Of a stretch of 64,000 nt of DNA, positions 927 through 24,509 are shown in pieces. The stretch's first letter is position 1; each line of letters opens with the position of its first letter. The translations under genes and the position numbers were made by a program. Below the pieces are notes generated by a model that did not search any database, was not told the DNA's origin, and worked only from the letters and a program-made list of their open reading frames with translations. The DNA is from Candidatus Nomurabacteria bacterium (GTDB lineage Bacteria > Patescibacteriota > Minisyncoccia > Phycocordibacterales > UBA9973). The stretch lies in the NCBI GenBank assembly GCA_026396065.1, contig JAPLXO010000011.1, positions 10,748 to 74,747 on the forward strand, written 5' to 3'.

Positions 927-933
927 AATAAAA

Positions 934-8637: not shown

Positions 8638-8644
8638 AAACTAA

Positions 8645-8676
8645 CAAAAAAAAGCTCAAAAGAGCTTTTTTTTGTT
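8645..8676 (+). terminator. Rho-independent terminator after dnaK
   Basis: aaagctc-aaa-agagcttt plus T8. Confidence 0.7.
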
Positions 8677-8701
8677 TTTAGTAACTGATATAATAAAACC
8701 T

Positions 8702-10978
8702 ATGGAAGATATTGTAATACCTGAAAATAAAGACATGACCTATCTTGGTCAGACTACTTTTCGTAACAAAAATGTTTTATTTGGAATAAAACGCAAAGAT
8801 CGTCGTCAGCACTGTTATTTGCTCGGAAAATCAGGTACTGGTAAATCTGCTCTCATGACAAATATGGTTTTGCAAAACATCATTAATGGTGATGGTGTTT
8901 GTGTTGTCGATCCACACGGAGAACTTGTAGAAAGTATTGTATCAGCTATTCCAGCTCATCGTTTAAAAGATGTTATTTATTTTAATCCTGCTGACACTGA
9001 TTATCATATTGGTTTTAACGTTTTAGAGTTATTAGATCCTCGTTACAAACATCTTGTCGCCTCAGGATTGATGGGAATTTTCACAAAAATTTGGGCGAAT
9101 GCATGGAGTGCTAGAATGGAATACATTTTAAATAATTGTATTTTGGCTTTACTCGATACACCAGGTACTACACTTCTTGGAATTCCTAGAATGCTCGTCG
9201 ACAAAGATTATCGTCAGAAAATAATTACAAATTTGAAAGATCCAGTCATTAAAGCTTTTTGGATTCATGAATATGAAGCTTGGCAAGATAAATTTCGAAA
9301 TGAAGCTATTGCTCCGATTCAAAATAAAGTCGGACAATTTCTTTCTACTTCCATTATTCGTAATGTCGTAGGGCAATCAAAAAGTACAATTGATCTTTTT
9401 CAAGTAATGAATGAAGGAAAGATTTTTTTGGTGAATGTTTCCAAGGGACGTATCGGTGAAGATAACTCTGCACTTCTCGGAGGTATGCTTATTACAAAAA
9501 TTCAGCTCGCTGCAATGGAGCGTGTGCGTATTCCAGAAGAAGAACGTAAAGACTTTTACCTGTATGTCGACGAATTCCAAAATTTCGTAACAGATGCTTT
9601 TGCTAGTATTCTTTCAGAAGCTCGTAAATATCGTTTAAATCTTACTATAGCTCACCAGTACACAGCTCAGCTTGTCACTGCCAATGGTTCCGCTGTGCGT
9701 GATGCTGTATTCGGCAACGTAGGGACTATGATTATTTTCCGTGTAGGTGCTGACGATGCTGAATTCTTAGAAAAAGAATTTGAACCAGAATTCATGGCTA
9801 CAGATATTGTGAACTTGCCAAACTATCGAATTTATTTAAAATTGATGATTGATGGTATTACGAGTAGACCTTTTTCTGCTAAGACACTTGCACCGATGAA
9901 TAAAAACAGTAAGGTAAATACTGAGGAAGAAGTGATAAAGTCTTCAAGAACTCTGTATGGAAGATCGAAAGAAGTCGTTGAATCAGAAATAAATTCTTGG
10001 AGTGGAATGTCTTTGGGAGACATAGTACCTCCAGGTGGCAATGCTGGTGCAGATGTAGAAAAATTCCCTGTAATTTGTTCAAATTGTATGAAAGAAACTA
10101 CCGTGCCATTCAAGCCAGAAGAAGGACGCGCTGTATATTGTAAAGAGTGTATTGCTAAAATGAAGACAGGCGAGTTGAAGCCTACAAAAGGATCAGCACG
10201 TCAAATAAAATACGATGAAGAAACATTTTTCAAACCTCTTGCCGATCTAGGTATTGAATTTACTTCAAAAGAAGCTCCACCAAAAGTAATACCAAAGCCA
10301 TACATGCCACCAGTATCAAAACCAGGAATTTTTGGGACTGTTAAAAAAGTCTTTCAAAATACTGTTGGAGCAAAACCTCCATCTCCAATTTCAAATATAC
10401 CAAAACCAATTTCTCCAATTACTACTACTAATGTTAATGTTCCAGTTCCACCAAAACCTCCTATAAATATTTTTAAACCACCAACTCCTTCTCTTAATAT
10501 TCCAACACCGGTAATACCAACACCTACTCCACCAGTTAAACCTATTATTTCTACTACTCCAATTGAGTCACAAAAACCTCAAACTGTAGTTGAAAAACCA
10601 AAAGAAAATACAGCACTTAAAGATTTGTTAAATAAAGCCTTGGCACCAAAGCCAATTACACCAGTAGTACCACCTATACAGCCAGTTGTTCCAGAAATAA
10701 AAAAAGTTGAACCAGAACCAATTTCTTTAGCTTCTTTAAAAAATCCAACAATTGCAACTCCTATTTCACAAAATAAAGATAGATCTGCGAGTGCTGAAAA
10801 TATGAATAAGTTAAAAGAATTTGTAGCAAAAATTGCAGAACCTCTTAAAGCAGAAGAAATAAAAAAAGAGGAACAAATTCCTACACAACCTCCAGTCACA
10901 CCTGCACCTACTCCGACGATACAAAAAACAACAAAAGAAGTTCCAGAAGATGTATTAAGGAAAATTTTAGAAGAATAA
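8702..10978 (+). CDS. VirD4/TraG/TraD-like (FtsK-HerA superfamily) P-loop ATPase with C-terminal CxxC-CxxC zinc ribbon and ~250-aa Pro/Thr-rich low-complexity tail
   Basis: Walker A LLGKSGTGKS; Walker B FYLYVDEFQNF; EARKYRLNLTIAHQYTAQL resembles the TraG-D_C/VirD4 motif (...RGYGI.L.LI.Q...QL). Zinc ribbon CSNC...x...YCKEC. No N-terminal TM helices. The ORF track starts at a TTG (8672) inside the dnaK terminator, so the first ATG (8702) is preferred. Paralog of 20448-21920. Confidence 0.6.
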   Translation: MEDIVIPENKDMTYLGQTTFRNKNVLFGIKRKDRRQHCYLLGKSGTGKSALMTNMVLQNIINGDGVCVVDPHGELVESIVSAIPAHRLKDVIYFNPADTDYHIGFNVLELLDPRYKHLVASGLMGIFTKIWANAWSARMEYILNNCILALLDTPGTTLLGIPRMLVDKDYRQKIITNLKDPVIKAFWIHEYEAWQDKFRNEAIAPIQNKVGQFLSTSIIRNVVGQSKSTIDLFQVMNEGKIFLVNVSKGRIGEDNSALLGGMLITKIQLAAMERVRIPEEERKDFYLYVDEFQNFVTDAFASILSEARKYRLNLTIAHQYTAQLVTANGSAVRDAVFGNVGTMIIFRVGADDAEFLEKEFEPEFMATDIVNLPNYRIYLKLMIDGITSRPFSAKTLAPMNKNSKVNTEEEVIKSSRTLYGRSKEVVESEINSWSGMSLGDIVPPGGNAGADVEKFPVICSNCMKETTVPFKPEEGRAVYCKECIAKMKTGELKPTKGSARQIKYDEETFFKPLADLGIEFTSKEAPPKVIPKPYMPPVSKPGIFGTVKKVFQNTVGAKPPSPISNIPKPISPITTTNVNVPVPPKPPINIFKPPTPSLNIPTPVIPTPTPPVKPIISTTPIESQKPQTVVEKPKENTALKDLLNKALAPKPITPVVPPIQPVVPEIKKVEPEPISLASLKNPTIATPISQNKDRSASAENMNKLKEFVAKIAEPLKAEEIKKEEQIPTQPPVTPAPTPTIQKTTKEVPEDVLRKILEE

Positions 10979-11021
10979 TAAATTAAAGAATGTCGCGCTA
11001 AAAGGACTTACGCGACCTCAT

Positions 11022-11336
11022 TTGCAAAATCACATGTTTTGGAATAAAAATACAAATATACATACAGAAAGTACAGAAGAATTTTTTGACGACGAAAGTT
11101 TTAAAGAAATAAAGATGACCTTTATTGGTCGCGTGGTTACTATTATTATTGCTTCACTTTCATTGATCGCCGCACTTGCTTGGGAGGAAACACTTCACGA
11201 TTTATTCAGAGAATTTTTCACTAGTAGTGAATCAATACAAGGTAAACTACTTTATGCAATATTGGTGACTCTGCTTACTGTCATTGTTTCTGTTTTCGTC
11301 GGCCGAAGATTCCTTAAAAAAGCACGAAGGAAATAA
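11022..11336 (+). CDS. Small hypothetical membrane protein (two predicted TM helices)
   Basis: 104-aa ORF; hydrophobic stretches IGRVVTIIIASLSLIAALA and LLYAILVTLLTVIVSVFVG; between ATPase and paralog array. Confidence 0.4.
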   Translation: MQNHMFWNKNTNIHTESTEEFFDDESFKEIKMTFIGRVVTIIIASLSLIAALAWEETLHDLFREFFTSSESIQGKLLYAILVTLLTVIVSVFVGRRFLKKARRK

Positions 11337-11380
11337 ATACTTTTGCTGTATCAGTGTACTAGTACGATAGTATAAAAAAT

Positions 11381-13135
11381 ATGAATCCAGAAATTAAAAA
11401 TTGTCAGAACTGTAAAAAAGAATTTACGATAGAAACGGAAGATTTTTCTTTTTATAAAAAAATGAAAGTTCCACCACCGACATTTTGTCCAGAGTGTAGA
11501 ATGCAAAGAAGATTGGCTTGGAGAAATGAGCGTGGACTATATCGTAGAAATAGTGATGTTCCAGGGAAAGAAAACGAACAGATAATTTCTACTTATCCAC
11601 CTACTATAAATGTAAAAGTATACGACAATGATTATTGGTGGAGTGATAATTGGGAACCTACTGATTATGCTATGGAGTATGATTTTTCACGACCTTTTTT
11701 TGAACAATTTCGGGAACTTTTGTCTAAAGTGCCATTAATAAGTTTTGCTGATAGTAAAGGAGTAAATAATCAATATTGTAATTATATTACTGAAGGTAAG
11801 AATTGTTATATGCTTTCTGCTGCATGGAGTTGTGAAGATTGTTTACTTGGAAATAGAAATTCTTTTTGCAAGGAAACTGTTGATTCTTATGTGTGTCATA
11901 AAACGGAATTTTCTTATGGAAATATTTATTGTGGAGAATCATATAAATTATTTTATAGTGAACATTCGTACAATTGTACTGATTCATATTTTCTTTACGA
12001 CTGCCGAAACTGTATTGATTGTTTTATGTGTTATGGTTTGAGAAATAAATCTTACTGTATTGAAAATGTTCAATACACACAAGAAGAATATAGAGAAAAA
12101 ATGAAAGATATAAATTTGGGTAATTATGAAACTGTTGAAAATAATAAAACTTATTTTAATAAATTTAAACAAAATGCAGTTCGTAAGTACGCCAATAATA
12201 CAAAATGTATAAATGTGACGGGAGATAATGTCGAAAATGCAAAAGATGCACAATATTGTTTTGATTTACCAGGAGGAATTGAAAATATTAAATACTGTAA
12301 TTGGGGTACGTATGGATTAAAAGATTCTTATGATACAGGGCCGGGGACAGGTGGTAAATCAGAAATGACCTATGAAGGAGTTAGTATTGGTGTAGCAAAT
12401 GCTAATTGTTCTTTTGGTGCAATTGTTTGGAATTCTAGTAATGTACAATATGCTTTTAATTGTTACTCTACGAATAATTGTTTTGGTGTCGTCAGTTTGA
12501 AAAGTAAATCTTACTGTATTTTAAATAAGCAGTATACCAAAGAAGAATATAATGAATTGCTACCGAAAGTCATTCAACATATGAATGATATGCCTTATGT
12601 AGATAAAAAAGGACGTGTGTATAAATATGGGGAGCTTTTTCCAATAGAACTTTCTCCTTATGCATACAATGGTGCAACGGTACAAGATTTTTTCCCTCTA
12701 GATAAAGCCACTGCAGTAGGAGAGGGTTTTAATTGGCAAGATGAAACGGAGAGGAATTATGAGGTTACTTTACCAGCCTCAAGTATTCCTTTAAATATTG
12801 AAGAAGTTAAAAATGATATACTGTCGCAAACTTTAGGTTGCATAAACGCTTCAGGAGATGTACAGGGTTGCACGAAGGCATTTAGGTTAGTTTCAAAAGA
12901 ATTAGATTTTTATAAAAGATTTAATATTCCTATTCCACATTTTTGTCCAAATTGTAGACACGCGGAGCGTGTCAGTAGACGCAACCCTATGAAACTTTGG
13001 CACAGACAATGCATGTGTGATAAAACAAATCATGGTCATGCAGCTAAGTGTGAAGTTGAATTTGAGACTGCATATGCTCCAGATAGACCAGAGATCGTCT
13101 ATTGTGAAAAGTGTTACCAACAGGAGATTTATTAG
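11381..13135 (+). CDS. Cysteine-rich zinc-ribbon protein, paralog 1 of unrecognised family (584 aa)
   Basis: N-terminal CQNC...FY.K.KVPPPTFCPECR zinc ribbon; two internal copies of C..C.DCF.C..LRN..YCI.N.QY..EEY; C-terminal FY.R.N.P.P.FCP.CRH.ER...NP.KLW.RQC.C...RPEIVYCEKCYQQEIY. Confidence 0.7.
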   Translation: MNPEIKNCQNCKKEFTIETEDFSFYKKMKVPPPTFCPECRMQRRLAWRNERGLYRRNSDVPGKENEQIISTYPPTINVKVYDNDYWWSDNWEPTDYAMEYDFSRPFFEQFRELLSKVPLISFADSKGVNNQYCNYITEGKNCYMLSAAWSCEDCLLGNRNSFCKETVDSYVCHKTEFSYGNIYCGESYKLFYSEHSYNCTDSYFLYDCRNCIDCFMCYGLRNKSYCIENVQYTQEEYREKMKDINLGNYETVENNKTYFNKFKQNAVRKYANNTKCINVTGDNVENAKDAQYCFDLPGGIENIKYCNWGTYGLKDSYDTGPGTGGKSEMTYEGVSIGVANANCSFGAIVWNSSNVQYAFNCYSTNNCFGVVSLKSKSYCILNKQYTKEEYNELLPKVIQHMNDMPYVDKKGRVYKYGELFPIELSPYAYNGATVQDFFPLDKATAVGEGFNWQDETERNYEVTLPASSIPLNIEEVKNDILSQTLGCINASGDVQGCTKAFRLVSKELDFYKRFNIPIPHFCPNCRHAERVSRRNPMKLWHRQCMCDKTNHGHAAKCEVEFETAYAPDRPEIVYCEKCYQQEIY

Positions 13136-13137
13136 TT

Positions 13138-14886
13138 ATGGAATCAAAAACACCAAAATCAGACGTACTTATAGATGAAATCCTTGCAGGGCTTGTTCCA
13201 CATACACGTATATGTAAATGGAAAGGCGAGCATCAGCATTGTGAAGGCAAATTTGAAATTACGAATGAAGATATTTCGTTTCTTAAAATGCTTCGAGTTC
13301 CTGCTCCAAATTTCTGTCCTACTTGTAGAAGAATTAAAAGACAATCTTTTATGGGTTTCGCGCAACTTTTTAAGAGGAAATGTGATGTAGTTGGACACGA
13401 TGAATCTATCATCTCTGTTTTTTCTAAAGAATGCCCTTTCCCAGTTGTTGATTATAAGTATTTTGCTTCTGATGAATTTGATTCTTTTTTATATCGTAAA
13501 AATTATGAAGAGAATACAAGTCCAATGGAACAACTTTTTTCTCTAAGGAAAATTTTTCCAATGCCTTCATTTTTAAATCGTGATTCTTCGAGTATAAATA
13601 GTGATTATTCAAATGGAGGTAGAGATAATAAAAACTGTTATTACACTAGTGGTTGCTATACGGTAGAAAATGCTTGGTATTCAAATATGCTCGTGAAGAG
13701 CAAAGAAATAATGGATTGCCGAACTGTAAAACATTCAGATCATGTATATTCGAGTCTTTATTCAGACCATCTATATAAATCTTATTTTACTTATTTTTCC
13801 AATAGCTGTACAGATAGTATGTTTCTTTTTGATTGTAGAAATTGTATAAACTGTTTTGGTTGTGTAAATTTGCGTAATGCTAAATATTGTATTTGGAATG
13901 AACAATATAGTAAAGAAGATTATGAACAATTTATAAAATCAAATCTACCATTCTCTAGAGATTTTTTAGAAGAAAATAAGCAAAAATTTTGGCAACTTGT
14001 AAAATCACTTCCAATAAATGCTTCTAGAAATATGACTGTAAAAAACAATGTAAATGGTGTGATGAATGTGAATTCGAATAATTTATATGATGTCACAGAA
14101 TCTAGTAAAGCAGAAAATGTACGTCATGCAGATGGCGCTCTTACACATCAAAATTCTATGGATTTACTATACTCGGGCGGATCTAGTTTGCTTTACGGTA
14201 CTATAAATATCGGTTCTCAATCGAGCAACGTTCGATTTTCAGTTTCATGTAAATTTTCTACTAACTCAGAATTTATTTTTAATTCAAATAATCTAGATAA
14301 TTGTTTTATGTGTTTTGGTTTGCAGCATAAATCTTATTGTATTTTAAACAAACAATATAGCCCAGATGAATATTTTAAAATAATAGATGAAATAAAATCT
14401 GACATGATAAAAAGGGGAGAATACGACGACGGACTAAGTTTTGAATTTTCTGCCCAAGCATATAATTTTTCATTAGCCCAGATTTCTTTTCCTCTTACAG
14501 AACAAGAAATAATAAAATTAGGTGGTTATATGGCTGAAGAGCCAGAAAGTAATGCCGGAGATATGAAAATTTTATCAAAAGAAGAAGTGCCACAAACAAT
14601 AGATGAAGTATCAGATGACATTGTAGATTATGCAATTAAATGTGAGGTTACTGCTAGGCCTTTCAGGATTACTCCTTCAGAATTACAATTTTATAGAATA
14701 ATGAAATTACCACTTCCTACTATACATCCGATAGTCAGAATGAGAAAATATTATGAACTGGCACCAATCGGTAAAAGCTACCCTGCTGTTTGTTCTAAAT
14801 GTGGTAAATCATTTCGATCATTATTTGATCCTAAAGACGGTTATAAGCTATACTGTGAAGATTGTTATAAACAAGAAGTATATTAA
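13138..14886 (+). CDS. Cysteine-rich zinc-ribbon protein, paralog 2 (583 aa)
   Basis: Same architecture; starts 2 nt after the paralog 1 stop; ends ...YCEDCYKQEVY. Confidence 0.7.
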   Translation: MESKTPKSDVLIDEILAGLVPHTRICKWKGEHQHCEGKFEITNEDISFLKMLRVPAPNFCPTCRRIKRQSFMGFAQLFKRKCDVVGHDESIISVFSKECPFPVVDYKYFASDEFDSFLYRKNYEENTSPMEQLFSLRKIFPMPSFLNRDSSSINSDYSNGGRDNKNCYYTSGCYTVENAWYSNMLVKSKEIMDCRTVKHSDHVYSSLYSDHLYKSYFTYFSNSCTDSMFLFDCRNCINCFGCVNLRNAKYCIWNEQYSKEDYEQFIKSNLPFSRDFLEENKQKFWQLVKSLPINASRNMTVKNNVNGVMNVNSNNLYDVTESSKAENVRHADGALTHQNSMDLLYSGGSSLLYGTINIGSQSSNVRFSVSCKFSTNSEFIFNSNNLDNCFMCFGLQHKSYCILNKQYSPDEYFKIIDEIKSDMIKRGEYDDGLSFEFSAQAYNFSLAQISFPLTEQEIIKLGGYMAEEPESNAGDMKILSKEEVPQTIDEVSDDIVDYAIKCEVTARPFRITPSELQFYRIMKLPLPTIHPIVRMRKYYELAPIGKSYPAVCSKCGKSFRSLFDPKDGYKLYCEDCYKQEVY

Positions 14887-14888
14887 TT

Positions 14889-14951
14889 ATGGAAACAAAA
14901 AACTGTCAAAATTGTCCCGATTTTTTAAAAATCGAGGATCCACGATTCTAA
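14889..14951 (+). pseudogene. Truncated ancestral N-terminal leader of paralog 3 (METKNCQNCPDFLKIEDPRF*), interrupted by a ~100-nt palindromic insert
   Basis: 20-codon ORF begins like the other paralogs (METKNCQNC). It then runs into the inserted element and a stop. ATGA overlap with the restart codon at 14951. Confidence 0.5.
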
Positions 14952-16684
14952 TGAATTATAATCGGGATAAAAAAGATATGGAACATCAATCAGAAAGTAA
15001 AATATGTCAGAATTGTAAGACTTCGTTTATTATAAAAGAAGAAGATTTTAATTTTTATGAAAAAATCAAAGTTCCTCCACCGACATTTTGCCCGGAGTGT
15101 AGAAACATACAACGTTTTGCTACTAGAAATTCAAAATCTTTATATAAACGTGCTTGTGATGGCTGTAAAAAAGAAGTTATATCACGATTTTCACCGCATA
15201 ATCCAGCAGTTATGTATTGCCGAGATTGTTGGTGGAGTGATAATTGGGACGCACTTTCTTTTGCAAAAGATTACGATTTTTCTAAAACTTTTTTTGAACA
15301 ATTTAAAGAACTTCTTTTCTCTGTACCACATGTATCACTTTTAAATAATAATATGCATGAAAGTGATTACTCAAACATGGAATCAGATGATAAAAGATGC
15401 TATCTAACCTTTGGAGGACATTATAATGAAGATTGTGCTTTTACTGAATATAGTCTTTGGGGACGTGAAGTATATGATTCTTATTGGTCATTAAAATCGG
15501 AACAATGTCATGGATGTTCTCTTGTTGAGCGTTGCTATCGCACTTATGGATCTGAACAATGTTATGACTGTCTCGATACACTTTTTTCTTTTGATTGTAC
15601 AAATTGTTCAAATATTATTGGTTGTATAGGGTTGAGAAATAAATCATATTGTATTTTTAATCAACAGTATTCTAAAGAAGAATTTTTTGAAATTAAAGAA
15701 AATTTAAATATTGGTTCATATAGAGCTCGAAAAGAACTAGAAGAGAAATCAAAAACATTTTGGCTTAGTTTCCCACATAAAGAGAGTTTGATAACTCATT
15801 CAAATGATTGTACTGGAAATAGTATAGTTAATTCAAAAAACTCAAAAAACATTTGGCAGGCAGATAGTGTTGAGGATTCCAAATATAGTTATATCGCAGC
15901 TTGGAATAAAAACTGTTATGACGAAACATCGGCTGGTAATGACGAGCTTTGTTATCTGTGCGCAAATGGTGGTGGTTTATATAATTCTATCGCTATATTA
16001 TATTCTTTTGGTTCAAATGTAGATAAGAAAAAACAAAGTTTTAATTGTGGTTATTCTTATACTGTTCTCAACTGCACTGATTGTTTTGGTTGTGTAGGAA
16101 TTCGTAATAAACAATATTGTATTTTGAACAAACAATATACCAAAGAAGAGTATTTTGAACTTTTAGAAAAAATTAAAAAAAGTATGTTGGAAAATCCTTT
16201 CCAATCACAAAAGACAGGACAAGTATTTAGCTATGGGGATTTCTTTCCATCAGAGCATTCACTTTTTGCTTACAATGAGACAGTAGCACAAGATTTATAT
16301 CCAAAAGATAAAGATTCTGCAGAGGCTCAAGGTTTTGTTTGGCGAGAAGAACCTGAACCACACTACGACTTTAATCATTATCAAATTCCTGATGATATAA
16401 AAGACGTAGATGATTCTATTTTGTCTCAAGTGTTAAAATGTGAAGAAAGTGGTAAGGGTTATAAAATAGCTCGATCTGAGTTAGCATTTTATCAAAAAAT
16501 GCAGATTCCAATACCTCGTATTTCGCCACTTATACGTATTCGAGACCGTGTACGTGCATTGTTACCATTTAAACTTTTTGATAGGCAATGTCAGAAATGT
16601 AATAAGGATATAAAAACTCCTTATTCTCCAGAACGCCCAGAAATTATCTACTGTGAAAAGTGTTACCAGCAGGAAGTATATTAA
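14951..16684 (+). CDS. Cysteine-rich zinc-ribbon protein, paralog 3 (577 aa from restart Met)
   Basis: MNYNRDKKDMEHQSESKICQNCKTSFII...; same family architecture; ends RPEIIYCEKCYQQEVY. Confidence 0.65.
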   Translation: MNYNRDKKDMEHQSESKICQNCKTSFIIKEEDFNFYEKIKVPPPTFCPECRNIQRFATRNSKSLYKRACDGCKKEVISRFSPHNPAVMYCRDCWWSDNWDALSFAKDYDFSKTFFEQFKELLFSVPHVSLLNNNMHESDYSNMESDDKRCYLTFGGHYNEDCAFTEYSLWGREVYDSYWSLKSEQCHGCSLVERCYRTYGSEQCYDCLDTLFSFDCTNCSNIIGCIGLRNKSYCIFNQQYSKEEFFEIKENLNIGSYRARKELEEKSKTFWLSFPHKESLITHSNDCTGNSIVNSKNSKNIWQADSVEDSKYSYIAAWNKNCYDETSAGNDELCYLCANGGGLYNSIAILYSFGSNVDKKKQSFNCGYSYTVLNCTDCFGCVGIRNKQYCILNKQYTKEEYFELLEKIKKSMLENPFQSQKTGQVFSYGDFFPSEHSLFAYNETVAQDLYPKDKDSAEAQGFVWREEPEPHYDFNHYQIPDDIKDVDDSILSQVLKCEESGKGYKIARSELAFYQKMQIPIPRISPLIRIRDRVRALLPFKLFDRQCQKCNKDIKTPYSPERPEIIYCEKCYQQEVY

Positions 16685-16686
16685 TT

Positions 16687-18459
16687 ATGGAAACACGAAA
16701 TTGTCAAAATTGTAAAAAAGATTTCACTATAGAGGTGGAGGATTTTAATTTTTATCAAAAGATAAAAGTTCCACCACCGACGTGGTGCCCAGAGTGTCGA
16801 CTTATTCGTCGTCTTGCTTATCGTGAAGAACGGTCTTTTTATAAAGATGAATGTGATAAATGCGGTCATGAAATAGTAAGTTTATTTGCACCAGAATCTG
16901 ATCTTCCTGTCTTTTGTTCTCCTTGTTGGTGGAGTGATAGTTGGGATGCTACATCTTATGGAAAAGACTACGATTTTTCTCGTCCATTTTTTGAGCAATT
17001 ATATCAATTAATGAAAGTCGTACCAAATCAGGCTACAAATACACGAAATTGTACTGATTGTAAATATTCTCATGGCAATATACGTTGTAAAAATTGTACT
17101 TTTGTTTTTGCTGGTATACAGTCTATTAATTGCTATTATTGTTCAACACCGATTTTCACAAAAGATTCTTTTGATTCAAGCTTTATTATAAATGCTGATC
17201 ATGTATATGAAGGTGTACATATAGGGGGAATATATAATTCAAAATTTATTTATTTTTCTGATGAATGCTTGGACTGTTCTTTTATTTTTAATTGTGTTGG
17301 ATGTTCAGATTGTTTTGGTTGTGTAAATTTAAGAAATCAAAAATATTGTATTTTTAATATTCAATATTCTAAAGAAGAATATAAAAAAGAAATTTTAAAA
17401 TGGGATCTAGGTAGTTATGAAAATTTACAAAAAGCACGAGAACTTTTTATGAAACTTTACCATAAAACACCAAGACGTTTTGCATTAATTTCAAATTCTA
17501 CAAATTGTATTGGTGATGATATTCAAAATACTAAAAATTGTAAAATATGTTTTTCTGCTACTCATGGAGTAGAAAATTCTAAATTTATTTTTCAATGTGG
17601 ATTATTGTTGAAAGATAGTTATGATGTGACACTAGGCGGAGATACTTCTGAGCTTGCATATGAAGTAAATGGTAGCACTCAATCACAAAAAAGTTTTTTT
17701 TGTAGGGGTAGTAATAACTTAAGAGATGTTGAATATTCAGATAATATATACAATGGATCCAATCTTTTTGGTTGCGTAAAATTGAGACATAAAAAATATT
17801 GTATTTTAAATAAACAATATACAAAAGAAGAATATGAAGATTTAATACCAAAAATAAAACAGCATATGATAGATATGCCATATGTTGATAAAAAAGGACG
17901 AGTCTATAAATATGGGGAATTTTTTCCAGTAGAAATAGCTTTATTTGCTTACAATGAAACCTGGGCACATCAATATTTTCCTATTACAAAAGAAAAAGCA
18001 ATAGAACAAGGTTACAATTGGCGTGATCCGATAGAAAGGGATTATAAAATAACTATTAACATTGGGAATTTGCATAATCATATTAAAGATGTGACTGATT
18101 CTATTTTAGATGAAGTGATAGAATGTGAACATAATGGAAAAAACTGTAATCAACAGTGCACTACTGCTTTTAGAATTTTACCAAATGAATTGGGTTTTTA
18201 TAGACAAATGAATTTGGCTTTGCCTAGAATATGCCCAAACTGTCGTCATTATGAAAGATTAAAAAAAACAAATCCACCAAAATTATGGCATGGAAAATGT
18301 ATGTGCGATGGTGTAGAATCAAGTAATAAAGAATATAGAAATACTATTAAGCATTTGCATGGAGAGGAGCCTTGCCAAAATGAATTTGAAACTTCTATAA
18401 GTAGTGAAAGAAAAGAAATAGTTTATTGTGAAAAATGTTATCAGGATGAATTTATATGA
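16687..18459 (+). CDS. Cysteine-rich zinc-ribbon protein, paralog 4 (590 aa)
   Basis: METRNCQNCKKDFTIEVEDFNFYQKIKVPPPTWCPECR...; ends KEIVYCEKCYQDEFI; first ATG is 16687 (the ORF-track start 16660 is an alternative codon). Confidence 0.7.
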   Translation: METRNCQNCKKDFTIEVEDFNFYQKIKVPPPTWCPECRLIRRLAYREERSFYKDECDKCGHEIVSLFAPESDLPVFCSPCWWSDSWDATSYGKDYDFSRPFFEQLYQLMKVVPNQATNTRNCTDCKYSHGNIRCKNCTFVFAGIQSINCYYCSTPIFTKDSFDSSFIINADHVYEGVHIGGIYNSKFIYFSDECLDCSFIFNCVGCSDCFGCVNLRNQKYCIFNIQYSKEEYKKEILKWDLGSYENLQKARELFMKLYHKTPRRFALISNSTNCIGDDIQNTKNCKICFSATHGVENSKFIFQCGLLLKDSYDVTLGGDTSELAYEVNGSTQSQKSFFCRGSNNLRDVEYSDNIYNGSNLFGCVKLRHKKYCILNKQYTKEEYEDLIPKIKQHMIDMPYVDKKGRVYKYGEFFPVEIALFAYNETWAHQYFPITKEKAIEQGYNWRDPIERDYKITINIGNLHNHIKDVTDSILDEVIECEHNGKNCNQQCTTAFRILPNELGFYRQMNLALPRICPNCRHYERLKKTNPPKLWHGKCMCDGVESSNKEYRNTIKHLHGEEPCQNEFETSISSERKEIVYCEKCYQDEFI

Positions 18460-18572
18460 ATAAAAAAACAAAATTAAAAATAGAATCTTTAAAATATTTA
18501 ATTCCAATCTTGTTAAAAACAATTAAATTTCGAATTAAAGTTTGGCGACGTAAAAACTTTTAAATAAGATAT

Positions 18573-20315
18573 ATGGAAACACGAAACTGTCAAAATTGTA
18601 AAAAAGATTTCACTATAGAGGTGGAGGATTTTAATTTTTATCAAAAGATAAAAGTTCCAGCGCCGACTTTTTGCCCAGATTGTAGAACAATACGTAGACT
18701 ATGTTGGAGAAATGAAATGTCTCTTTTTAAGAGAAAATGTGATGCTCCTGGACATGAAGAAATGCTCATTACATGTTTTCCTCCAGAAGAAAAACTCACT
18801 GTATATGATTCTACATCTTGGTGGGGTGATTCTTGGGATGCAATACAATATGGAAAAGAATATGATTTTTCCAAATCATTCTTTGAACAGTGGAGAGATT
18901 TAAGAAATAGTATTCCACTTCAGGCACTTTCAAACATAAAAGCGACTAACAGTGATTATTGTAATGTGGCAGAGGGCAGTAAAGATAGCTATATGTGTTC
19001 GGGTACTTGGAAAATAGAAAGAACTCTTTACTCTAATAGAGTTTCAGAAACAAAAGATTCCTCCGACTTGTATATAGTGTATCGTTCTGAGCTTTGTTAT
19101 GAAGATGTAATATGTTCTGATTGTTACCATTTAATGTACTCTTTAGATTGTAAAAGTTGTGTTGACTCATTTTTTCTCTATGATTGTGTGGGTTGCACAG
19201 ACTGTTTTGGTTGTAGTAATTTACGCAATAAATCATATTGCATGTGGAACGAGCAATTGTCTAGAGAAGAATATTTTCGTCATTTAGCAGAATATAATTT
19301 AAAAAATCATGAGACTATATCGATTTTAAAAAATAAATTTAAAGAAATTTGTTTGCAATCTTTACATCGTTTTTCACTTCAAATAAAATCAGTAAATTCT
19401 ACTGGTGACAATTTAGAAGGTACAAAAAATTGCAAAGTGTGTTTTGATGTTTCTGGAAAAATGGAAGATTTGAAATATGTGCATTGGACAGCTATTAGTG
19501 CAAAAGACGCTTATGATTCTGGCCCTGGTATTGGACAAGTTGAACTTGCATATGAATCCTTTGACACTGGAATAGGTAATTTCCGTAGTCTTTTTACGAG
19601 TGTTGTATATAGTTGTAACGATGTTGAATATTCATTTAATTGTCATGGTTCTTCGAATTTATTTGGTTGTATTGGAATTAGAAATAAAAAATACTGTATT
19701 TTAAATAAAGAATATACAAAAGGGGAATATGAAATATTATTGCCAAAAATTAAAGAGCAAATGATGCAAGTTCCATATATAGATAAAAAAGGAATTAATT
19801 ATAGATACGGTGAATTTTTTCCAGCAGAACTTTCTACTTTTTGTTATAACGAAACACAAGCACAAGATTATTTTCCAATAGATAAGGAATATGCATCTAA
19901 AATGGGATATCGTTGGCGTGATAAAAAGATAAGTGAATATCACATCACTATTGAATCAAAAGATCTTCCAGATTCTCTTGATGACGTTACAGATTCAATC
20001 ACTAATGAAATTATTGGATGTGAAAATAAAGATAAGATGAGTAATTATTGTAGAGGAGCATATAAAATAACTATCGATGAGCTGAATTTATATCGCAAGC
20101 TTGGAGTACCATTACCAAGACTTTGTTTTCTTTGTCGGCATGAAACTAGATTAAAAATGCGTAATCCAATGAAGCTTTGGAATAGACAGTGTATGTGTGA
20201 AAAAGAAAATCATCAACATAGTGGTAAATGTGAAATTACATTTGAAACATCATACGATCCTAATAGACCAGAAATAGTATATTGTGAAAAATGCTATCAA
20301 GCCGAGGTTTATTAG
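18573..20315 (+). CDS. Cysteine-rich zinc-ribbon protein, paralog 5 (580 aa)
   Basis: METRNCQNCKKDFTIEVEDFNFYQKIKVPAPTFCPDCR...; C-terminus NPMKLWNRQCMCEKENHQHSGKCEITFETSYDPNRPEIVYCEKCYQAEVY nearly identical to paralog 1. Confidence 0.7.
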   Translation: METRNCQNCKKDFTIEVEDFNFYQKIKVPAPTFCPDCRTIRRLCWRNEMSLFKRKCDAPGHEEMLITCFPPEEKLTVYDSTSWWGDSWDAIQYGKEYDFSKSFFEQWRDLRNSIPLQALSNIKATNSDYCNVAEGSKDSYMCSGTWKIERTLYSNRVSETKDSSDLYIVYRSELCYEDVICSDCYHLMYSLDCKSCVDSFFLYDCVGCTDCFGCSNLRNKSYCMWNEQLSREEYFRHLAEYNLKNHETISILKNKFKEICLQSLHRFSLQIKSVNSTGDNLEGTKNCKVCFDVSGKMEDLKYVHWTAISAKDAYDSGPGIGQVELAYESFDTGIGNFRSLFTSVVYSCNDVEYSFNCHGSSNLFGCIGIRNKKYCILNKEYTKGEYEILLPKIKEQMMQVPYIDKKGINYRYGEFFPAELSTFCYNETQAQDYFPIDKEYASKMGYRWRDKKISEYHITIESKDLPDSLDDVTDSITNEIIGCENKDKMSNYCRGAYKITIDELNLYRKLGVPLPRLCFLCRHETRLKMRNPMKLWNRQCMCEKENHQHSGKCEITFETSYDPNRPEIVYCEKCYQAEVY

Positions 20316-20325
20316 AATGAAGTCC

Positions 20326-20425
20326 ATGATAAGGGGTTTGGGTTGTATTTCTCCCTCTCCTTGATAAGGAGAGGCCGTCTACAGGTGTCCATCAACTACC
20401 GGTGGACTTTGGGTGAGGTGAATTA
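20326..20425. repeat. Intergenic repeat element B: hairpin ctccctctcctt-gata-aggagagg plus gggtgaggtgaat box
   Basis: Read directly; the same hairpin and box recur at 23776-23816; related G-box at 5755-5780. Confidence 0.65.
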
Positions 20426-20447
20426 TATGCTAAAATAATAATACATT

Positions 20448-21920
20448 ATGGGAAAGCCGAATCGAGTTCAGATAATCAAATATGGTCCACCACCACCAGA
20501 GCTTCCGGTGTTTGGAAAGGTGCCTCCTGAAGAGGTTTCTTTTATTGGACGTACGAATTACGTCGCAGCACTTGAAGAAAAGAAATTTATTTTCGGAATT
20601 AAGCGCGTTGACCGCCGAAGACATTTATATATCATTGGAAAGTCTGGGGTTGGAAAAACAAAGCTTCTAGAATTGATGCTTCGCCAAGATGTGACATATG
20701 GCCACGGTCTTTGTCTTATCGATCCACACGGTGACGTTATCGATGCAATGCTCGATTATATTCCAAAAGAGCGTGTTGAAGACGTTTGTATTATTGACCC
20801 TGCTGATATTGATTTCCCAGCATCTTTCAATCCTTTGGCAAATGTCGACCCAATGTTCAAATTTCAATTGACTCAAGGGTTAATCGAAGTTTTCCAAAAA
20901 CAATTCGGTGCAAACTGGACACCACGTCTCGAGCACGTTTTTCGTTTTACTTGTCTCGCATTACTCGATTATCCGTATGCTACGATGCGCGGAATGATCT
21001 CGATGTTGACAGATAGAAATTATCGTCAGAAAGTCGTGGAATATATTACAGACGACATGGTGAAAAGATTCTTCGCTATCGAATTCGCGGACTGGTCTGA
21101 AAAATTCGATACTGACGCTATTATTCCACTTGTTAATAAACTAGGTCAATTTCTTTCTGATCCCTTGCTTCGTAATATTTTCGGACAGAAGCAAAATAAA
21201 ATAGATATTAGTAAATTGATGAATGAACAAAAAATAATTTTTATTAATTTGTCTAAAGGGCGCCTCGGTGAAGAAAATTCGTCTTTCCTTGGTTCGATGT
21301 TTTTGACTAAAATTAAACAGGCCGGAATGGAGCGCGCTAGTATTGCCGAACGTGACCGTAAAGATTTTTATATTTATGTGGACGAGTTCCAAAACGTAGT
21401 GACACAAACTTTCGAAAACATTTTGTCGGAAGCTCGAAAATACGGTTTGAACCTTACTATGGCTCATCAGTATGTCGGTCAAATTATTCCAAAAGTTCAC
21501 CAAGCTGTACTTGGTAATACAGGTAGTGTCATTTGTTTTCGTGTAGGTGGAGAAGATGCTGTAAAATTGAAACCCGAATTTGAGCCATTATTCGGAGTGA
21601 AAGACATGATCAACCTCGCCGTAGCAGAATTTTATATCAAAATGACGATTGATGGAGAGTCTTACGATCCATTTTCTGCAGAGACACTTCGTGTATTACC
21701 TCCAAATCATCCTTCATATCGACAAGAAATTATAAATGCATCACGTAGAAAATATTCAATTCCAAAAGACGATGCGCAAAAATTGATTCAAGAGGAAGAA
21801 GCTACAATTATTCGAAGTGCAGAAGAAAAAGCTATTATTTCAGGAAAAGGCAAAAATGAAGTTGACGAAAATGAAAAGTCTGCAAAACCAGTCGCTAAAG
21901 AAGCTGAACCTATGATATAA
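20448..21920 (+). CDS. VirD4/TraG/TraD-like (FtsK-HerA superfamily) P-loop ATPase, paralog 2 (490 aa; no zinc ribbon or Pro-rich tail)
   Basis: Walker A IIGKSGVGKT; Walker B FYIYVDEFQNV; EARKYGLNLTMAHQYVGQI; collinear with 8702-10978 over ~450 aa. Confidence 0.6.
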   Translation: MGKPNRVQIIKYGPPPPELPVFGKVPPEEVSFIGRTNYVAALEEKKFIFGIKRVDRRRHLYIIGKSGVGKTKLLELMLRQDVTYGHGLCLIDPHGDVIDAMLDYIPKERVEDVCIIDPADIDFPASFNPLANVDPMFKFQLTQGLIEVFQKQFGANWTPRLEHVFRFTCLALLDYPYATMRGMISMLTDRNYRQKVVEYITDDMVKRFFAIEFADWSEKFDTDAIIPLVNKLGQFLSDPLLRNIFGQKQNKIDISKLMNEQKIIFINLSKGRLGEENSSFLGSMFLTKIKQAGMERASIAERDRKDFYIYVDEFQNVVTQTFENILSEARKYGLNLTMAHQYVGQIIPKVHQAVLGNTGSVICFRVGGEDAVKLKPEFEPLFGVKDMINLAVAEFYIKMTIDGESYDPFSAETLRVLPPNHPSYRQEIINASRRKYSIPKDDAQKLIQEEEATIIRSAEEKAIISGKGKNEVDENEKSAKPVAKEAEPMI

Positions 21921-21967
21921 ATTAAACAACATACTGACAAACTCCAGTATGTAAGGATGTTAAATTT

Positions 21968-22012
21968 ATGAATTCTGAAACAAAAAATTGCCAAAATTGT
22001 CCCGATTTTTAA
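21968..22012 (+). pseudogene. Truncated ancestral N-terminal leader of paralog 6 (MNSETKNCQNCPDF*), interrupted by the same insert as paralog 3
   Basis: Read directly; the same CQNC then cccgattttt... junction as at 14910. Confidence 0.5.
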
Positions 22013-22035
22013 AAAATCGAGGATCCACGATTCTA

Positions 22036-23775
22036 ATGAATTATAATCGGGATAAAAAAGATATGGAACATCAATCAGAAAGTAAAATATGTCAGAATTG
22101 TAAGACTTCGTTTATTATAGAACAAGAAGATTTTAATTTTTATGAAAAGATGAAAGTTCCTGCACCGACATGGTGTCCTGAATGTCGAATGGCACGTAGA
22201 TTCCTATTTATGAATACTTGGAATCTATATAGGCGAAATTGTGAAAAATGTGGGGAAAGTACACTTTCAATGTTTTCAGAAGATAAACCACATAAGGTTT
22301 TTTGTTTACCTTGTTGGTGGTCGGATGATTGGGATGGTACTGAGTATGCTATCAATTACGACCCCTCTCGTTCTTTTTTAGAACAGATGAAAGAGCTGGA
22401 ACTCAGAACACCTTGGATGGCTAATACTATGATGTATACAATGAATGTAAATAGCCCGTATTGTAATGCTACTGGTCCAGTAAAGAATTGCTACATGCTT
22501 TTTTGGGCAGATTATTGTGAAAATTCTTTTTACTCATCTTATTTGAATACTTTAAAAGATTCTATAGATTGTTATCGGGTAGCTCATAGTGAATTGTGCT
22601 ATGAAGGCACTGGTTTGAATAAATGTTACAGAACTTTCTTTTCGGAAGAGTGTGATTCTTGTACCGATACGTGGTTTTCAAGAGCTTGTTCTGGTTTAGT
22701 AAATTGTTTTGGTTGTATAAATTTAAGAAATAAAAATTATTGTATATTCAATGAACAATATTCTCAGGAAGATTATTTTAAAAAAGTAAAAGAATTTGAT
22801 CTAATATCTCATACGTCATTAGAAAAAATAAAAAAAGATGTTTTAGTGTTTTGGAGTAAATATCCAAGGCGATTTTATAACGGTAATGCGTTAAACAAAA
22901 ACGTTAGTGGTGATTATATTTATGAATCTAAAAATGCACAGAATTGTTTTATGGTTTCTGGGGCTGAAGATTGTAAATTTACTCAATTTGTAAGTATTCC
23001 AAAAGCCAAAGATTGTTATGATAATACTGGTTGGGGAGATGGTTCAGAAAGAATTTATGAGTCTACTGTTGTCGGCCTCGGAGCAAGTAATGTAAAATTT
23101 TCTAATGAATGCTGGCCTAATGCAATGAATACAGAATACTCTATCTATGCTATAGGTGGATGTAAGGATATTTTTGGATGTGTCAATTTAAAGAAAAAAC
23201 AATATTGTATTTTAAATAAACAGTATTCAAAGGAAGAATATGAAAAGTTAAAAGAAAAAATTATTAAAGATATGAATATAAATACTTTTATAGACTCAAA
23301 AAATAGAGTTTATAAATATGGTGATTCATTACCTATTGAATTGTCGCCATTTTCTTACAATGAATCAAATGCTGGTAAGTTTTTACCAATTACAAAAGAA
23401 AAAGCTTTAGAGCAAGGTTTCACTTGGTCAGAAGGAAAGGTGAATGAATATAAGATTACAGCCAAGGCGTCTGATTTACCAGATACAATCTCATATACTA
23501 CAGATGAGATACTAAACGACGTGTTTGAATGTGCTTCTTGTCAAAGAGCTTATAAATTTACTCTAGGTGAATTGAATTTAATGAGAAGACTTTCTTTACC
23601 ATTACCACATAAATGTTTTCATTGTCGTCAAGAATTTCGTTTTTCTAGATCTAATCAGGCTAGATTATACGATAGAAATTACATGAAATGCGGAGTAGAT
23701 TTAAAAACTTCTTATAATCCAGATAACACAGAAATAGTTTATTGTGAAAAATGCTATCAGCAGGAAGTATATTAG
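22036..23775 (+). CDS. Cysteine-rich zinc-ribbon protein, paralog 6 (579 aa from restart Met)
   Basis: MNYNRDKKDMEHQSESKICQNCKTSFII...; ends NTEIVYCEKCYQQEVY; the first 28 residues are encoded by nucleotides identical to paralog 3. Confidence 0.65.
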   Translation: MNYNRDKKDMEHQSESKICQNCKTSFIIEQEDFNFYEKMKVPAPTWCPECRMARRFLFMNTWNLYRRNCEKCGESTLSMFSEDKPHKVFCLPCWWSDDWDGTEYAINYDPSRSFLEQMKELELRTPWMANTMMYTMNVNSPYCNATGPVKNCYMLFWADYCENSFYSSYLNTLKDSIDCYRVAHSELCYEGTGLNKCYRTFFSEECDSCTDTWFSRACSGLVNCFGCINLRNKNYCIFNEQYSQEDYFKKVKEFDLISHTSLEKIKKDVLVFWSKYPRRFYNGNALNKNVSGDYIYESKNAQNCFMVSGAEDCKFTQFVSIPKAKDCYDNTGWGDGSERIYESTVVGLGASNVKFSNECWPNAMNTEYSIYAIGGCKDIFGCVNLKKKQYCILNKQYSKEEYEKLKEKIIKDMNINTFIDSKNRVYKYGDSLPIELSPFSYNESNAGKFLPITKEKALEQGFTWSEGKVNEYKITAKASDLPDTISYTTDEILNDVFECASCQRAYKFTLGELNLMRRLSLPLPHKCFHCRQEFRFSRSNQARLYDRNYMKCGVDLKTSYNPDNTEIVYCEKCYQQEVY

Positions 23776-23816
23776 CTCCCTCTCCTTAATAAGGAGAGGG
23801 TTGGGGTGAGGTGAAT
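23776..23816. repeat. Intergenic repeat element C: hairpin ctccctctcctt-aata-aggagagg plus gggttggggtgaggtgaat
   Basis: Immediately follows the paralog 6 stop codon; copy of element B. Confidence 0.65.
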
Positions 23817-23855
23817 TTTTGATTTTTAGATGATTTTTTGCTAATATAACACTCT

Positions 23856-24509
23856 ATGAGTAAAGATTACTATGAAGTTTTGGGAGTTAATAAAAGTGCT
23901 ACAAAAGACGAATTGAAAACGGCTTTTCGTAAGCTTGCGCACAAACATCATCCAGACAAGAATAAAGGGGATGATAAAAAATTTAAAGAAATAAATGAAG
24001 CGTATCAAACACTTTCAGATGACACAAAGCGTGCACAATACGATAGATTTGGTGCAGGTTATCAAAATATGGGTGGCGGACATCAACATGGTGGATTTTC
24101 TGGTGGAGGTTTTGAAGGATTTGACTTTTCTGGTTTTCAGCAAGGTGGACAAGAATTTGATTTTGGAAACTTGAATGATATATTTTCAGATTTTTTTACA
24201 GGAGGCAGAGGTGGTTTTCACACCAGAACTCCTCGTGGCCGAGACATGCAAACAGAAATTGAAATTTCTTTTATAGATGCTATTTTAGGTGTTGAAAAAA
24301 ATATTGTTATTACTGGGCATAAAGAAATAAAAATAAGTATTCCGTCTGGTATACGTGATGGCCAAACTTTAAAAATGACAGGAATGGGTGAAGTTATAAA
24401 AGATGGAAAAGCAGGAGATTTATATATAAATGTTCATGTTAAAGTTCCACACAAGATATCTAAAAAAGCTCGCGAACTTCTTGAAGAATTAAAAAAAGAG
24501 GGAATTTAG
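23856..24509 (+). CDS. dnaJ: DnaJ-like co-chaperone, minimal form (J-domain plus G/F region plus partial C-terminal domain; no CxxCxGxG zinc-finger domain)
   Basis: DYYEVLGV...HPDKN J-domain with HPD; Gly/Phe-rich linker; [13 protein letters not shown]-terminal segment; only 217 aa and no Cys repeats. Confidence 0.8.

Follow-up and report, generated by a model that had tools for sequence, protein, structure and literature searches.

The 64,000-nt window analysed here comes from a short-read metagenome-assembled genome (MAG) of Candidatus Nomurabacteria (Patescibacteria), an uncultured groundwater bacterium of very small size, and it harbours seven paralogous genes, each encoding a Cys-rich protein of about 580 amino acids with treble-clef zinc-finger motifs at both ends. 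Near their 5' ends, two of these genes (paralogs 3 and 6) carry the same short, hairpin-forming element, and this element, its structure, its relatives in other genomes and its probable mode of spread are the main focus of this analysis. Six of the seven paralogs lie between dnaK and dnaJ, along with two genes for TraG/VirD4-like ATPases, and the paralogs are generally about 40% identical to one another. Searches of Pfam and NCBIfam with the host protein family returned weak treble-clef zinc-finger matches and nothing stronger. The product of paralog 3 is identical to NTZ44_03670, which is carried on a 147,710-nt contig.

When considered at the nucleotide level, the tract common to paralogs 3 and 6 (Table 1) had been picked out in an initial annotation, made from the sequence alone, as a near-identical segment in two otherwise divergent genes, and so it is: 127 of its 128 bases are equal, while the encoded proteins are 42% identical. 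A 51-nt core pattern occurs at two sites in the window, in paralogs 3 and 6 only, with none expected in shuffled sequences. Since the two proteins are 94% identical over the first 50 alignment columns but only 42% overall, a duplication of the whole gene, raised at the time as a counter-explanation, is excluded. Past 15034, each gene turns to the sequence of its own subfamily, in keeping with the divergence described earlier; this divergence is not immediate, however, as nucleotide identity is still 27/30 and then 24/30, because the stretch is conserved in all paralogs (other pairs reach 21-27/30 there).

Both genes open with a family start, METKNCQNC at ATG 14889 and MNSETKNCQNC at ATG 21968, and both soon meet a stop (TAA at 14949-14951 and at 22010-22012, respectively), which leaves the upstream open reading frames (ORFs) of 20 and 14 codons that had been proposed and that the reading frames confirm. 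The stop in paralog 3 overlaps ATG 14951 as TAATG, whereas the early stop in paralog 6 is created by the A at 22011. A downstream ATG then rejoins the family frame in both genes, again as proposed, but the conserved start is the second ATG, at 14978 and 22063 (MEHQSESKICQNC), rather than the one at 14951 and 22036 that had been favoured. The database annotation of paralog 3 also uses 14951, nine codons earlier and within the second hairpin of the element. The equivalent starts in three carriers from other metagenomes, L086 (MEHEPQNVICQNC), L094 (MEYEFKNVVCQNC) and L084 (MSKNSENRICQNC), have no in-frame ATG further upstream, and translation in the window genes probably begins at 14978 and 22063. 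A pair of imperfect 12-nt repeats, TGTCAAAATTGT (14904-14915) and TGTCAGAATTGT (15005-15016), spaced by 101 nt and with counterparts in paralog 6 at 21989-22000 and 22090-22101, had been likened to a target-site duplication. They are instead the tails of two copies of a gene start, one being the displaced native start (the relic) and the other a replacement that travels with the element. These duplicates are diverged and vary in length (24-33 nt in the window), and direct reading shows that the two ETKNCQNC-coding stretches of the window differ at several positions. The 62-nt spacer was also tried as a decayed continuation of the relic gene, and this candidate was rejected, as the alignment is limited to its last 9 nt (AAAAAAGAT), which correspond to the KKD codons in paralogs 4 and 5, and at p ~0.01 is too weak.

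The initial annotation treated the whole shared stretch as the insert. The 128 nt are indeed shared, but the element proper is a 56-nt core, the remainder being flanks that were copied along with it (7 nt to the left of the core and 65 nt to its right). The core has 8-nt terminal inverted repeats, GTCCCGAT and ATCGGGAY (the right one also occurring as ATCGGGAC), which in copy 1 lie at 14914-14921 and at 14961-14968 (ATCGGGAT), and it is made up of two hairpins side by side, with GGATCC at the centre forming the junction of both stems (in copy 1, hairpin 1 spans 14915-14938, hairpin 2 spans 14939-14967, and GGATCC occupies 14936-14941). The layout is pseudo-symmetric, with UCC-CGAU...AUCG-(bulge)-GGA followed directly by UCC-(bulge)-CGAU...AUCG-GGA; the cccgat...atcggg inverted repeat noticed earlier is thus real (z = -2.85), but is better seen as the terminal repeats around two hairpins. 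The two-hairpin fold is the minimum-energy structure for L084, L025, L086m, L094m and L097m and, with DNA parameters, for the window copy (-10.4 kcal/mol), whereas with RNA parameters the pairing of the terminal repeats is slightly better than the two hairpins in the window copy. In an alignment of 10 sequences, pairing at the 14 basal positions reaches 97%, three of the pairs show compensatory changes, and the distal stems keep their pairing although they have no sequence in common among copies. Sizes range from 48 to 90 nt for cassettes lacking an ORF, and reach about 300 nt when a GIY-YIG gene is present.

A covariance model (R1), run over 705 kb and, with filters off, over the window, finds exactly three copies in the window. 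The third lies in frame within aspS, where it folds into the hairpins UCCCGAC-UGAA-(A)GUCG(U)GGA and UCC(U)CGGCAAU-AGAA-AUUGCCGGGA (-22.6 kcal/mol). The AspS protein has 8-9 extra residues at this position that are missing from the 15 homologues compared, and the hairpin-2 half overlaps residues that align with a native helix. An Rfam scan of 14000-23000 at E <= 1 returned no family or ribozyme, only one chance microRNA match, and promoter and terminator scans gave nothing over shuffle level. Since a ribosome-binding site is absent from most starts in the window, the GAGGA within the element probably does not act as one. As a side observation, the single base by which copies 1 and 2 differ is the centre of a 17-nt palindrome, CGATTTTT(T/A)AAAAATCG, so that reverse-complementing the 17-mer of either copy yields exactly that of the other; a flipped hairpin tip would have this result, and so would a point mutation.

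Table 1. Positions of the element copies and associated features in the window.
Feature	Position	Strand	Remarks
Displaced (relic) start of paralog 3	14889-14951	+	ATG plus eight family codons (14889-14915); 20-codon upstream ORF running into the element
Tract common to paralogs 3 and 6, paralog 3 copy	14907-15034	+	7 nt of relic, element, leader, replacement start and 18 nt past the second CQNC
Element copy 1, without ORF	14914-14969	+	Model R1, 59.1 bits, E ~3e-15
A-rich leader AAAAAGAT	14970-14977	+	Between element and replacement start; GGGAYAAAAAAGWT-ATG conserved in other carriers
Coding sequence of paralog 3 from the replacement start (MEHQSESKICQNCKTSFII...)	14978-16684	+	Start conserved in other carriers
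Displaced native start of paralog 6 (MNSETKNCQNC)	21968-22012	+	14-codon upstream ORF; resembles N-termini of relatives
Shared 128-nt tract, paralog 6 copy	21992-22119	+	Sequence identity
Element copy 2	21999-22054	+	Model R1, 58.9 bits; equal to copy 1 except at the centre of the hairpin-1 palindrome (A 22011, T 14926)
Coding sequence of paralog 6 from the replacement start	22063-23775	+	First 19 codons equal to paralog 3; paralog-6 type from ~22120 (EKMKVPAPTWCPECRM...)
Element copy 3, 48-nt miniature, in frame within aspS (47065-48480)	47230-47277	+	Model R1, 33.5 bits, E ~1e-7

The element is not confined to this genome. A look at family members elsewhere had been suggested at the outset. 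In a survey of 80 family loci fetched from metagenomes, together with a scan of 176 family N-termini for a second upstream CQNC, the element was found after this same Cys codon in no fewer than five strongly diverged members of the family from other metagenomes (L084, L025, L026, L086/L088 and L094-L096). These carriers share one layout: an M..CQNC relic, GT followed directly by CCCGAT, a variable hairpin and CG(A/T)GGATCC(A/T)CG, and then a second hairpin ending in ATCGGGA(C/T), an A-rich leader (AAAAAGWT), an ATG and a fresh M...K.CQNC that leads into the gene. The carrier genes are 39-64% identical to one another and at most 51% identical to any paralog of the window. Homology of the element extends over the window copies and L084, L025, L026, L086, L094, L097, L108 and L117, copies without an ORF being those of the window, L084, L025, L026 and L007.

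Unrelated genes are also affected. In two genomes (L097-L106 and L117-L123), whose host AtpA and AtpG proteins are 79% and 70% identical, respectively, the element lies between atpA and atpG after the first 22 atpG codons, and is followed by a complete atpG with a different set of first 22 codons. The displaced atpG relics (MESPQNIKKRLKSVNNIGQITK) are identical as proteins in both genomes, with 12 synonymous differences, whereas the in-frame replacement starts differ at 9 of 22 residues; the two start copies, 66 nt long, match at 37-47 of 66 positions. At L107-L116, the element is found just past the stop of a yqeY-like gene, and a displaced duplicate of the last 27 codons of that gene follows. 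Gene ends are thus duplicated in three unrelated genes. A second, intergenic copy is present at L026 (L026b), and neither the intergenic nor the in-frame copies have flanking repeats. A minimal two-hairpin copy of 39 nt (L007, 2421-2459; TCCCGACCGAAGTCGGGA TCCCGACAGAGGTCGGGA) was also observed in frame, within the N-terminal extension of an S11 gene (VPTEVGIPTEVGK), at a position where the S11 gene of the window (877-1365) has a different sequence. Of the earlier proposal of a mobile cassette akin to a miniature inverted-repeat transposable element (MITE) that targets the CQNC codons, the mobile cassette agrees well with the terminal repeats, the longer versions with a nuclease gene and the recurrence at the same codon in at least five divergent members, whereas specificity for CQNC is contradicted by the copies at the 5' end of atpG, at the 3' end of the yqeY-like gene, in intergenic sequence and in frame in aspS and S11.

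Full-size versions of the element (about 300 nt) contain an 80-amino-acid, single-domain GIY-YIG gene in the loop of hairpin 1, and this is the sole type of ORF found inside elements. For instance, the ORF in L086/L088 comprises 102 codons, and residues 1-71 match PF01541 with E = 7e-17. Homologues of the nuclease number 78, mostly of 76-107 amino acids with a few outliers of 64-178, and the ORF lies within the hairpin-1 loop in all five nuclease clusters with readable DNA, namely L086 and L094 (5' end of a family gene), L097 and L117 (5' end of atpG) and L108 (3' end of the yqeY-like gene). The stop of the relic or upstream ORF falls 0-10 nt ahead of the nuclease ATG, overlapping it as TAATG in the atpG cases. 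A search of NCBIfam with the nuclease gave nothing above cut-off, and the nearest solved structures are weak matches, the UPF0213 proteins 1ZG2 (E = 4e-6) and 1YWL (2e-4). In all likelihood, the source MAG itself has genes for two GIY-YIG proteins of the clade, MCX6758057 and MCX6757823, which bracket the paralog 3 product (MCX6757949) in accession order. MCX6758057 comes from a contig of 147,710 nt, the length also given for the protein of paralog 3, and MCX6757823 ends in KEIEDPRF before its stop, the same reading as that of the upstream ORF of the window across the junction of hairpins 1 and 2. Neither gene lies within the window.

A related observation concerns L065 (1640-2010), where a GIY-YIG gene, 40-49% identical to the others, stands just upstream of a family gene, enclosed by different inverted repeats (CCCATTAGAGAT / ATCTCTAACGGG) and preceded by what is possibly a decayed CQNC relic (TGTCAAAAAGTTGT).

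The nearest known systems are the Ssn-SRM modules and the gene hybrids of fungal mitochondrial mobile ORFs. The Ssn family consists of single-domain GIY-YIG nucleases whose genes are flanked by hairpin repeats (NTS/SRM) that also exist as hundreds of copies without an ORF (Chenal et al. 2025, Nat Commun, PMC11893778). The cut made by Ssn falls in single-stranded DNA, a short way upstream of the hairpin; the NTS-ssnA-NTS layout is likened by the authors to an insertion sequence, and NTS are rarely found inside genes. The sections considered here report no gene-end duplications, and the paper does not mention Patescibacteria or Candidatus lineages (PMC11893778). The likeness of the patescibacterial element to an Ssn module is strong: both have a single-domain GIY-YIG protein of about 80-110 amino acids, a nuclease gene bounded on its 5' and 3' sides by hairpin repeats that are also found without an ORF, and a hairpin with a GTC tag and a CCCG...CGGGA stem (CGTCATTCCCGCG...GCGGGAAT). 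In contrast to the published layout, where the gene sits between two separate hairpins, here a fixed unit of two hairpins houses it in the loop of one of them. Furthermore, the published SRM pattern HGTCWYN(0-2)YYVSBRHN(0-5)WNVSBRGN(0-2)RNCYNB, which did match an NTS sequence used as control, has no match in the 10 element copies (both strands) or in the window.

Mobile ORF elements (mORFs), known from the mitochondria of Allomyces (atp6) and Glomus (atp6, atp9, cox2 and nad3), consist of a free-standing LAGLIDADG or GIY-YIG gene at the end of a host gene, together with a foreign C-terminus that has displaced the native one (PMC3630166; PMC7487136). In these systems the native end stays adjacent as a displaced duplicate that resembles close relatives, and the yqeY-like case (L108) has exactly this layout. 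Direct comparison likewise identifies the in-frame copy as foreign and the displaced copy as native in both paralog 6 and atpG. An endonuclease ORF at the end of the host gene is also shared (L086, L094, L097, L117 and L108), the copies of the window being without one. The differences are that the hosts are bacterial, that mostly 5' ends are affected, with a new start codon supplied, that the nuclease is a bare 80-amino-acid domain, and that a conserved two-hairpin shell with terminal repeats and miniature derivatives lacking an ORF is present.

Taken together, the shared segment is best read as a non-autonomous copy, without an ORF, of a GIY-YIG/hairpin cassette of Patescibacteria that replaces gene ends and that was recently copied between paralogs 3 and 6, a reading to which a probability of roughly three in four can be assigned. 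Mobility rather than inheritance is indicated by the unrelated host genes, by the low identity among carriers and by closer relatives that are free of the element. For paralog 6 these were judged from N-termini: relatives that are 60-69% identical start with M..ETKNCQNCK.., like its short upstream ORF. In this gene, the relic is the native start and the in-frame start is the transferred one, identical to that of paralog 3; a native relic on one side, paralog-6 type sequence after 22119 on the other and an identical tract between them point to a recent intragenomic transfer of the element with its replacement start. Relatives of paralog 3 (65-70% identical) start with MEHQSENKVCQNC or MEYKSEKKICQNC, which match the start inside the supposed insert (MEHQSESKICQNC, ATG 14978), in DNA that has neither relic nor hairpin upstream.

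How the cassette might move can be outlined from sequence comparison. It would settle at the very end of a gene without destroying it, since it brings a substitute copy of that end. On arrival at a 5' end, this copy would comprise the A-rich leader, the ATG and the codons that precede the insertion point, and the resident end would be displaced as a short relic which, at 5' ends, would persist as a short upstream ORF. In a first step, the nuclease would cut single-stranded DNA at the foot of the hairpin, as Ssn nucleases do, thereby defining the end of the cassette. The fragment could then integrate by pairing with the target gene through a homologous arm on one side and joining through short homology at the end of the cassette on the other, leaving the relic, which might subsequently act as the second homology arm for spread to paralogs (from 3 to 6 or the reverse). 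For the copying between these two paralogs, the relic codons and the conserved zinc-finger codons would have served as the arms. Copies without an ORF would need the nuclease in trans or ordinary gene conversion. A broader proposal is that these copies are still active and belong to a class of bacterial mobile elements not described before, in which a two-hairpin cassette, moved by an 80-amino-acid Ssn-like GIY-YIG single-strand nuclease, invades the ends of genes, essential ones such as atpG and aspS included, and leaves them functional because it brings a replacement end; this is put forward tentatively, its chances falling somewhat short of even.

Several points weigh against the cassette reading. 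No presence/absence polymorphism at one and the same site was observed among the loci compared, and movement is deduced from sequence relationships. The role of the nuclease in mobility is suggested by its association with the element, and the 80-amino-acid protein has no DNA-binding domain. Only about 10 distinct copies support the structure, and an exact 26-mer of the element had no match in the genome and metagenome collections; of the source genome itself, the window was covered. The replacement start (MEH/MEY...K.CQNC) is also found in family members without an upstream element, so it may belong either to the cassette or to one gene lineage. Finally, paralogs 4 and 5 share an element-free identical tract, which implies that plain gene conversion occurs in this array anyway and could alone explain the copy between paralogs 3 and 6.

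This last point leads to a rival reading, namely that no mobile element is involved: METKNCQNC would derive from a deleted neighbouring paralog, the 62 nt would be ordinary intergenic DNA, and the block would have been copied from paralog 3 to 6 by gene conversion. The tract of paralogs 4 and 5 (16687-16773 versus 18573-18659; METRNCQNCKKDFTIEVEDFNFYQKIKVP) is identical at 86 of 87 nt at the 5' end of genes that are 46% identical overall, and carries no element, thus representing a second, independent homogenization of 5' ends in the same array. In line with a lost neighbour, the junction of the paralog 3 relic with the stop of paralog 2 (gaagtatattaattatggaaaca) equals the junction between paralogs 3 and 4, the related Nomurabacteria locus L005 has a paralog-2 orthologue followed 7 nt later by a gene starting with MESQTKTCQNC, and the relatives of paralog 3 that start with MEHQSENKVCQNC have nothing upstream. 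Indeed, a lost-paralog relic with an ordinary spacer, based on the N-termini of orthologues, was the first working model, but it was overturned by the 80-locus survey and dropped as a full explanation because the same element was found in other genomes. Ordinary intergenic DNA does not account for a structured sequence of 56-90 nt that recurs after one and the same codon in five or more divergent genes from other genomes, for its occurrence at atpG, the yqeY-like gene, aspS, S11 and intergenic sites, or for a nuclease gene nested within it. Gene conversion, which the initial annotation had offered as an alternative, is accordingly contradicted as the full story, as which it is unlikely, and survives only as the mechanism of the latest copying step between paralogs 3 and 6.

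A conserved but immobile cis-regulatory leader, inherited vertically and controlling translation through the upstream ORF and RNA hairpins, is quite unlikely. The upstream ORF is intact in most carriers and its stop overlaps or adjoins the next ATG (TAATG at 14949-14953, and also in L097/L117), a coupling that could matter where most starts have no Shine-Dalgarno motif, and the fold is better than that of shuffled sequence. Such a leader is nevertheless not expected within the coding frames of aspS and S11, at a 3' end or inverted after a stop codon, nor to contain a nuclease gene, and close orthologues do without it; the Rfam scan mentioned above offers no family for it either. A regulatory role could still be a secondary effect of the element.

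Very improbable is an intron or a translational bypass, by which the 101 nt between the CQNC copies would be removed or skipped to give METKNCQNC-KTSF.... Deleting exactly these 101 nt does restore the canonical family N-terminus, the flanking Cys codons match (TGT/TGT), a hairpin lies just past the first of them and, in paralog 6, a stop follows soon after it. Yet a whole in-frame family start, conserved and varying from genome to genome like coding sequence, falls within the part to be skipped, there is no ribozyme match in the region scanned, self-splicing introns are far larger than 56-101 nt, and the copies at the 3' end of the yqeY-like gene and in frame in aspS do not fit. For a bypass of the T4 gene 60 type, moreover, the stop stands 11 codons past take-off in paralog 3 and three codons past it in paralog 6. 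As for an assembly artefact, in which a repeat was misplaced into two genes, the origin in a short-read MAG and a 128-nt repeat near k-mer and read length would make it conceivable, but it is exceedingly improbable given a one-base difference between copies, gene-specific flanks, two open, full-length genes and the same architecture in many independent assemblies.

The GIY-YIG/hairpin cassette can further be compared with better-known mobile units. It resembles MITEs in being short, free of ORFs and bounded by terminal inverted repeats, with a longer enzyme-encoding relative, but there is no target-site duplication of fixed length, the flanking repeats being diverged gene-start copies of 24-66 nt. 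Among T4-like phages, Seg proteins are encoded by free-standing GIY-YIG genes between other genes, which spread by break repair together with flanking sequence ("intronless homing"). These proteins possess DNA-binding domains, and Seg systems are not known to have a hairpin shell, duplicated gene ends or miniature derivatives. With REP, BIME and REPIN sequences, which RAYT transposases mobilise (REP-RAYT; PMC2817692), the element shares short structured units without an ORF, palindromes in opposite orientation and a longer enzyme partner. This partner, however, is a GIY-YIG nuclease and not a DDE or HUH/Y1 (RAYT) transposase, and the sites are gene ends and in-frame positions, whereas REP are extragenic. 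Rickettsia is named among the SRM-rich genera in the Ssn paper (PMC11893778). The palindromic elements of Rickettsia are a further point of comparison, from which the copies in paralogs 3 and 6 would differ in being out of frame and relying on a replacement start. Literature on GIY-YIG elements in bacteria of the candidate phyla radiation yielded nothing describing this element, and a 17-mer scan of viral contigs gave a single chance match, in coding sequence.

It was not until 2025 that Ssn nucleases, DNases that cut single strands site-specifically and are linked to hairpin repeats, were described (PMC11893778). The likeness of such modules to insertion sequences has hitherto been a hypothesis, and the present locus and its relatives offer a testable picture of one as mobile DNA, with defined ends, autonomous and miniature forms in one genome and repeated insertion at the same codon of divergent genes. 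Swapping a gene end would be a way into essential genes without harm, and the "gene hybrid" mechanism, known in fungal mitochondria, is broadened to include bacteria as well as 5' ends. The same process is a likely origin of chimeric N-termini, of spurious ORFs upstream of genes and of wrongly assigned start codons in annotated Patescibacteria genomes, while the nuclease/hairpin pairs are candidates for single-strand DNA tools. If an active, undescribed class is indeed at work, this would be the first genomic evidence of Ssn-hairpin modules that are still mobile and not domesticated, and it would mean that gene termini are shuffled between paralogs and species in the naturally DNA-scavenging Patescibacteria.

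Some observations made along the way concern the host family and its N-termini. The zinc-finger family (6742-24509 in the window; L001, L003 and L004) has more than 6,500 relatives in a protein search, essentially all unnamed, and its neighbourhood is conserved: dnaK/grpE/dnaJ lie nearby, as do genes for two TraG/VirD4-like coupling-protein ATPases, and the same treble-clef finger is present in one of these ATPases. Relatives have one copy at the dnaK/dnaJ locus, and the source genome has six in a row. About 11 of the 176 family starts surveyed have some N-terminal duplication. In L053 (38-170) and L054 (1524-1660), the insert follows ..FxIEPE and has a stem CCAGC.CCA../..TGG.GCTGG, then ACTTCGCTT; in L036 (4282-4400), a GC-rich hairpin and a T run come after IEPD; and in L046 (1643-1730), a 72-nt period with the stem GCTACGC/GCGTAGC is found. 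These different hairpins probably represent further cassette families. A composite hairpin at L003 4600-4672 (AAGCCCTT...AAGGGCTT), followed by AAAAAACA-ATG upstream of a paralog-3 relative that starts with MEYKSEKKICQNC, might be a remnant of a related cassette or merely a terminator.

Other observations relate to gene starts and to the rest of the window. A Shine-Dalgarno motif is missing at most gene starts, and at many of them a TATAAT-like box ends 7-10 nt 5' of the ATG (for instance at 57737, 61553, 45252, 20448, 50251 and 4770); these boxes suggest leaderless or very short-leader mRNAs in the source genome. A perfect TATAAT is present at 14957-14962 within hairpin 2, 15 nt ahead of ATG 14978. 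Elsewhere, within a 2083-residue ORF at 28363-34614, a repeat unit of about 405-410 nt occurs three times (around 29650-30820), with 70-97% identity.

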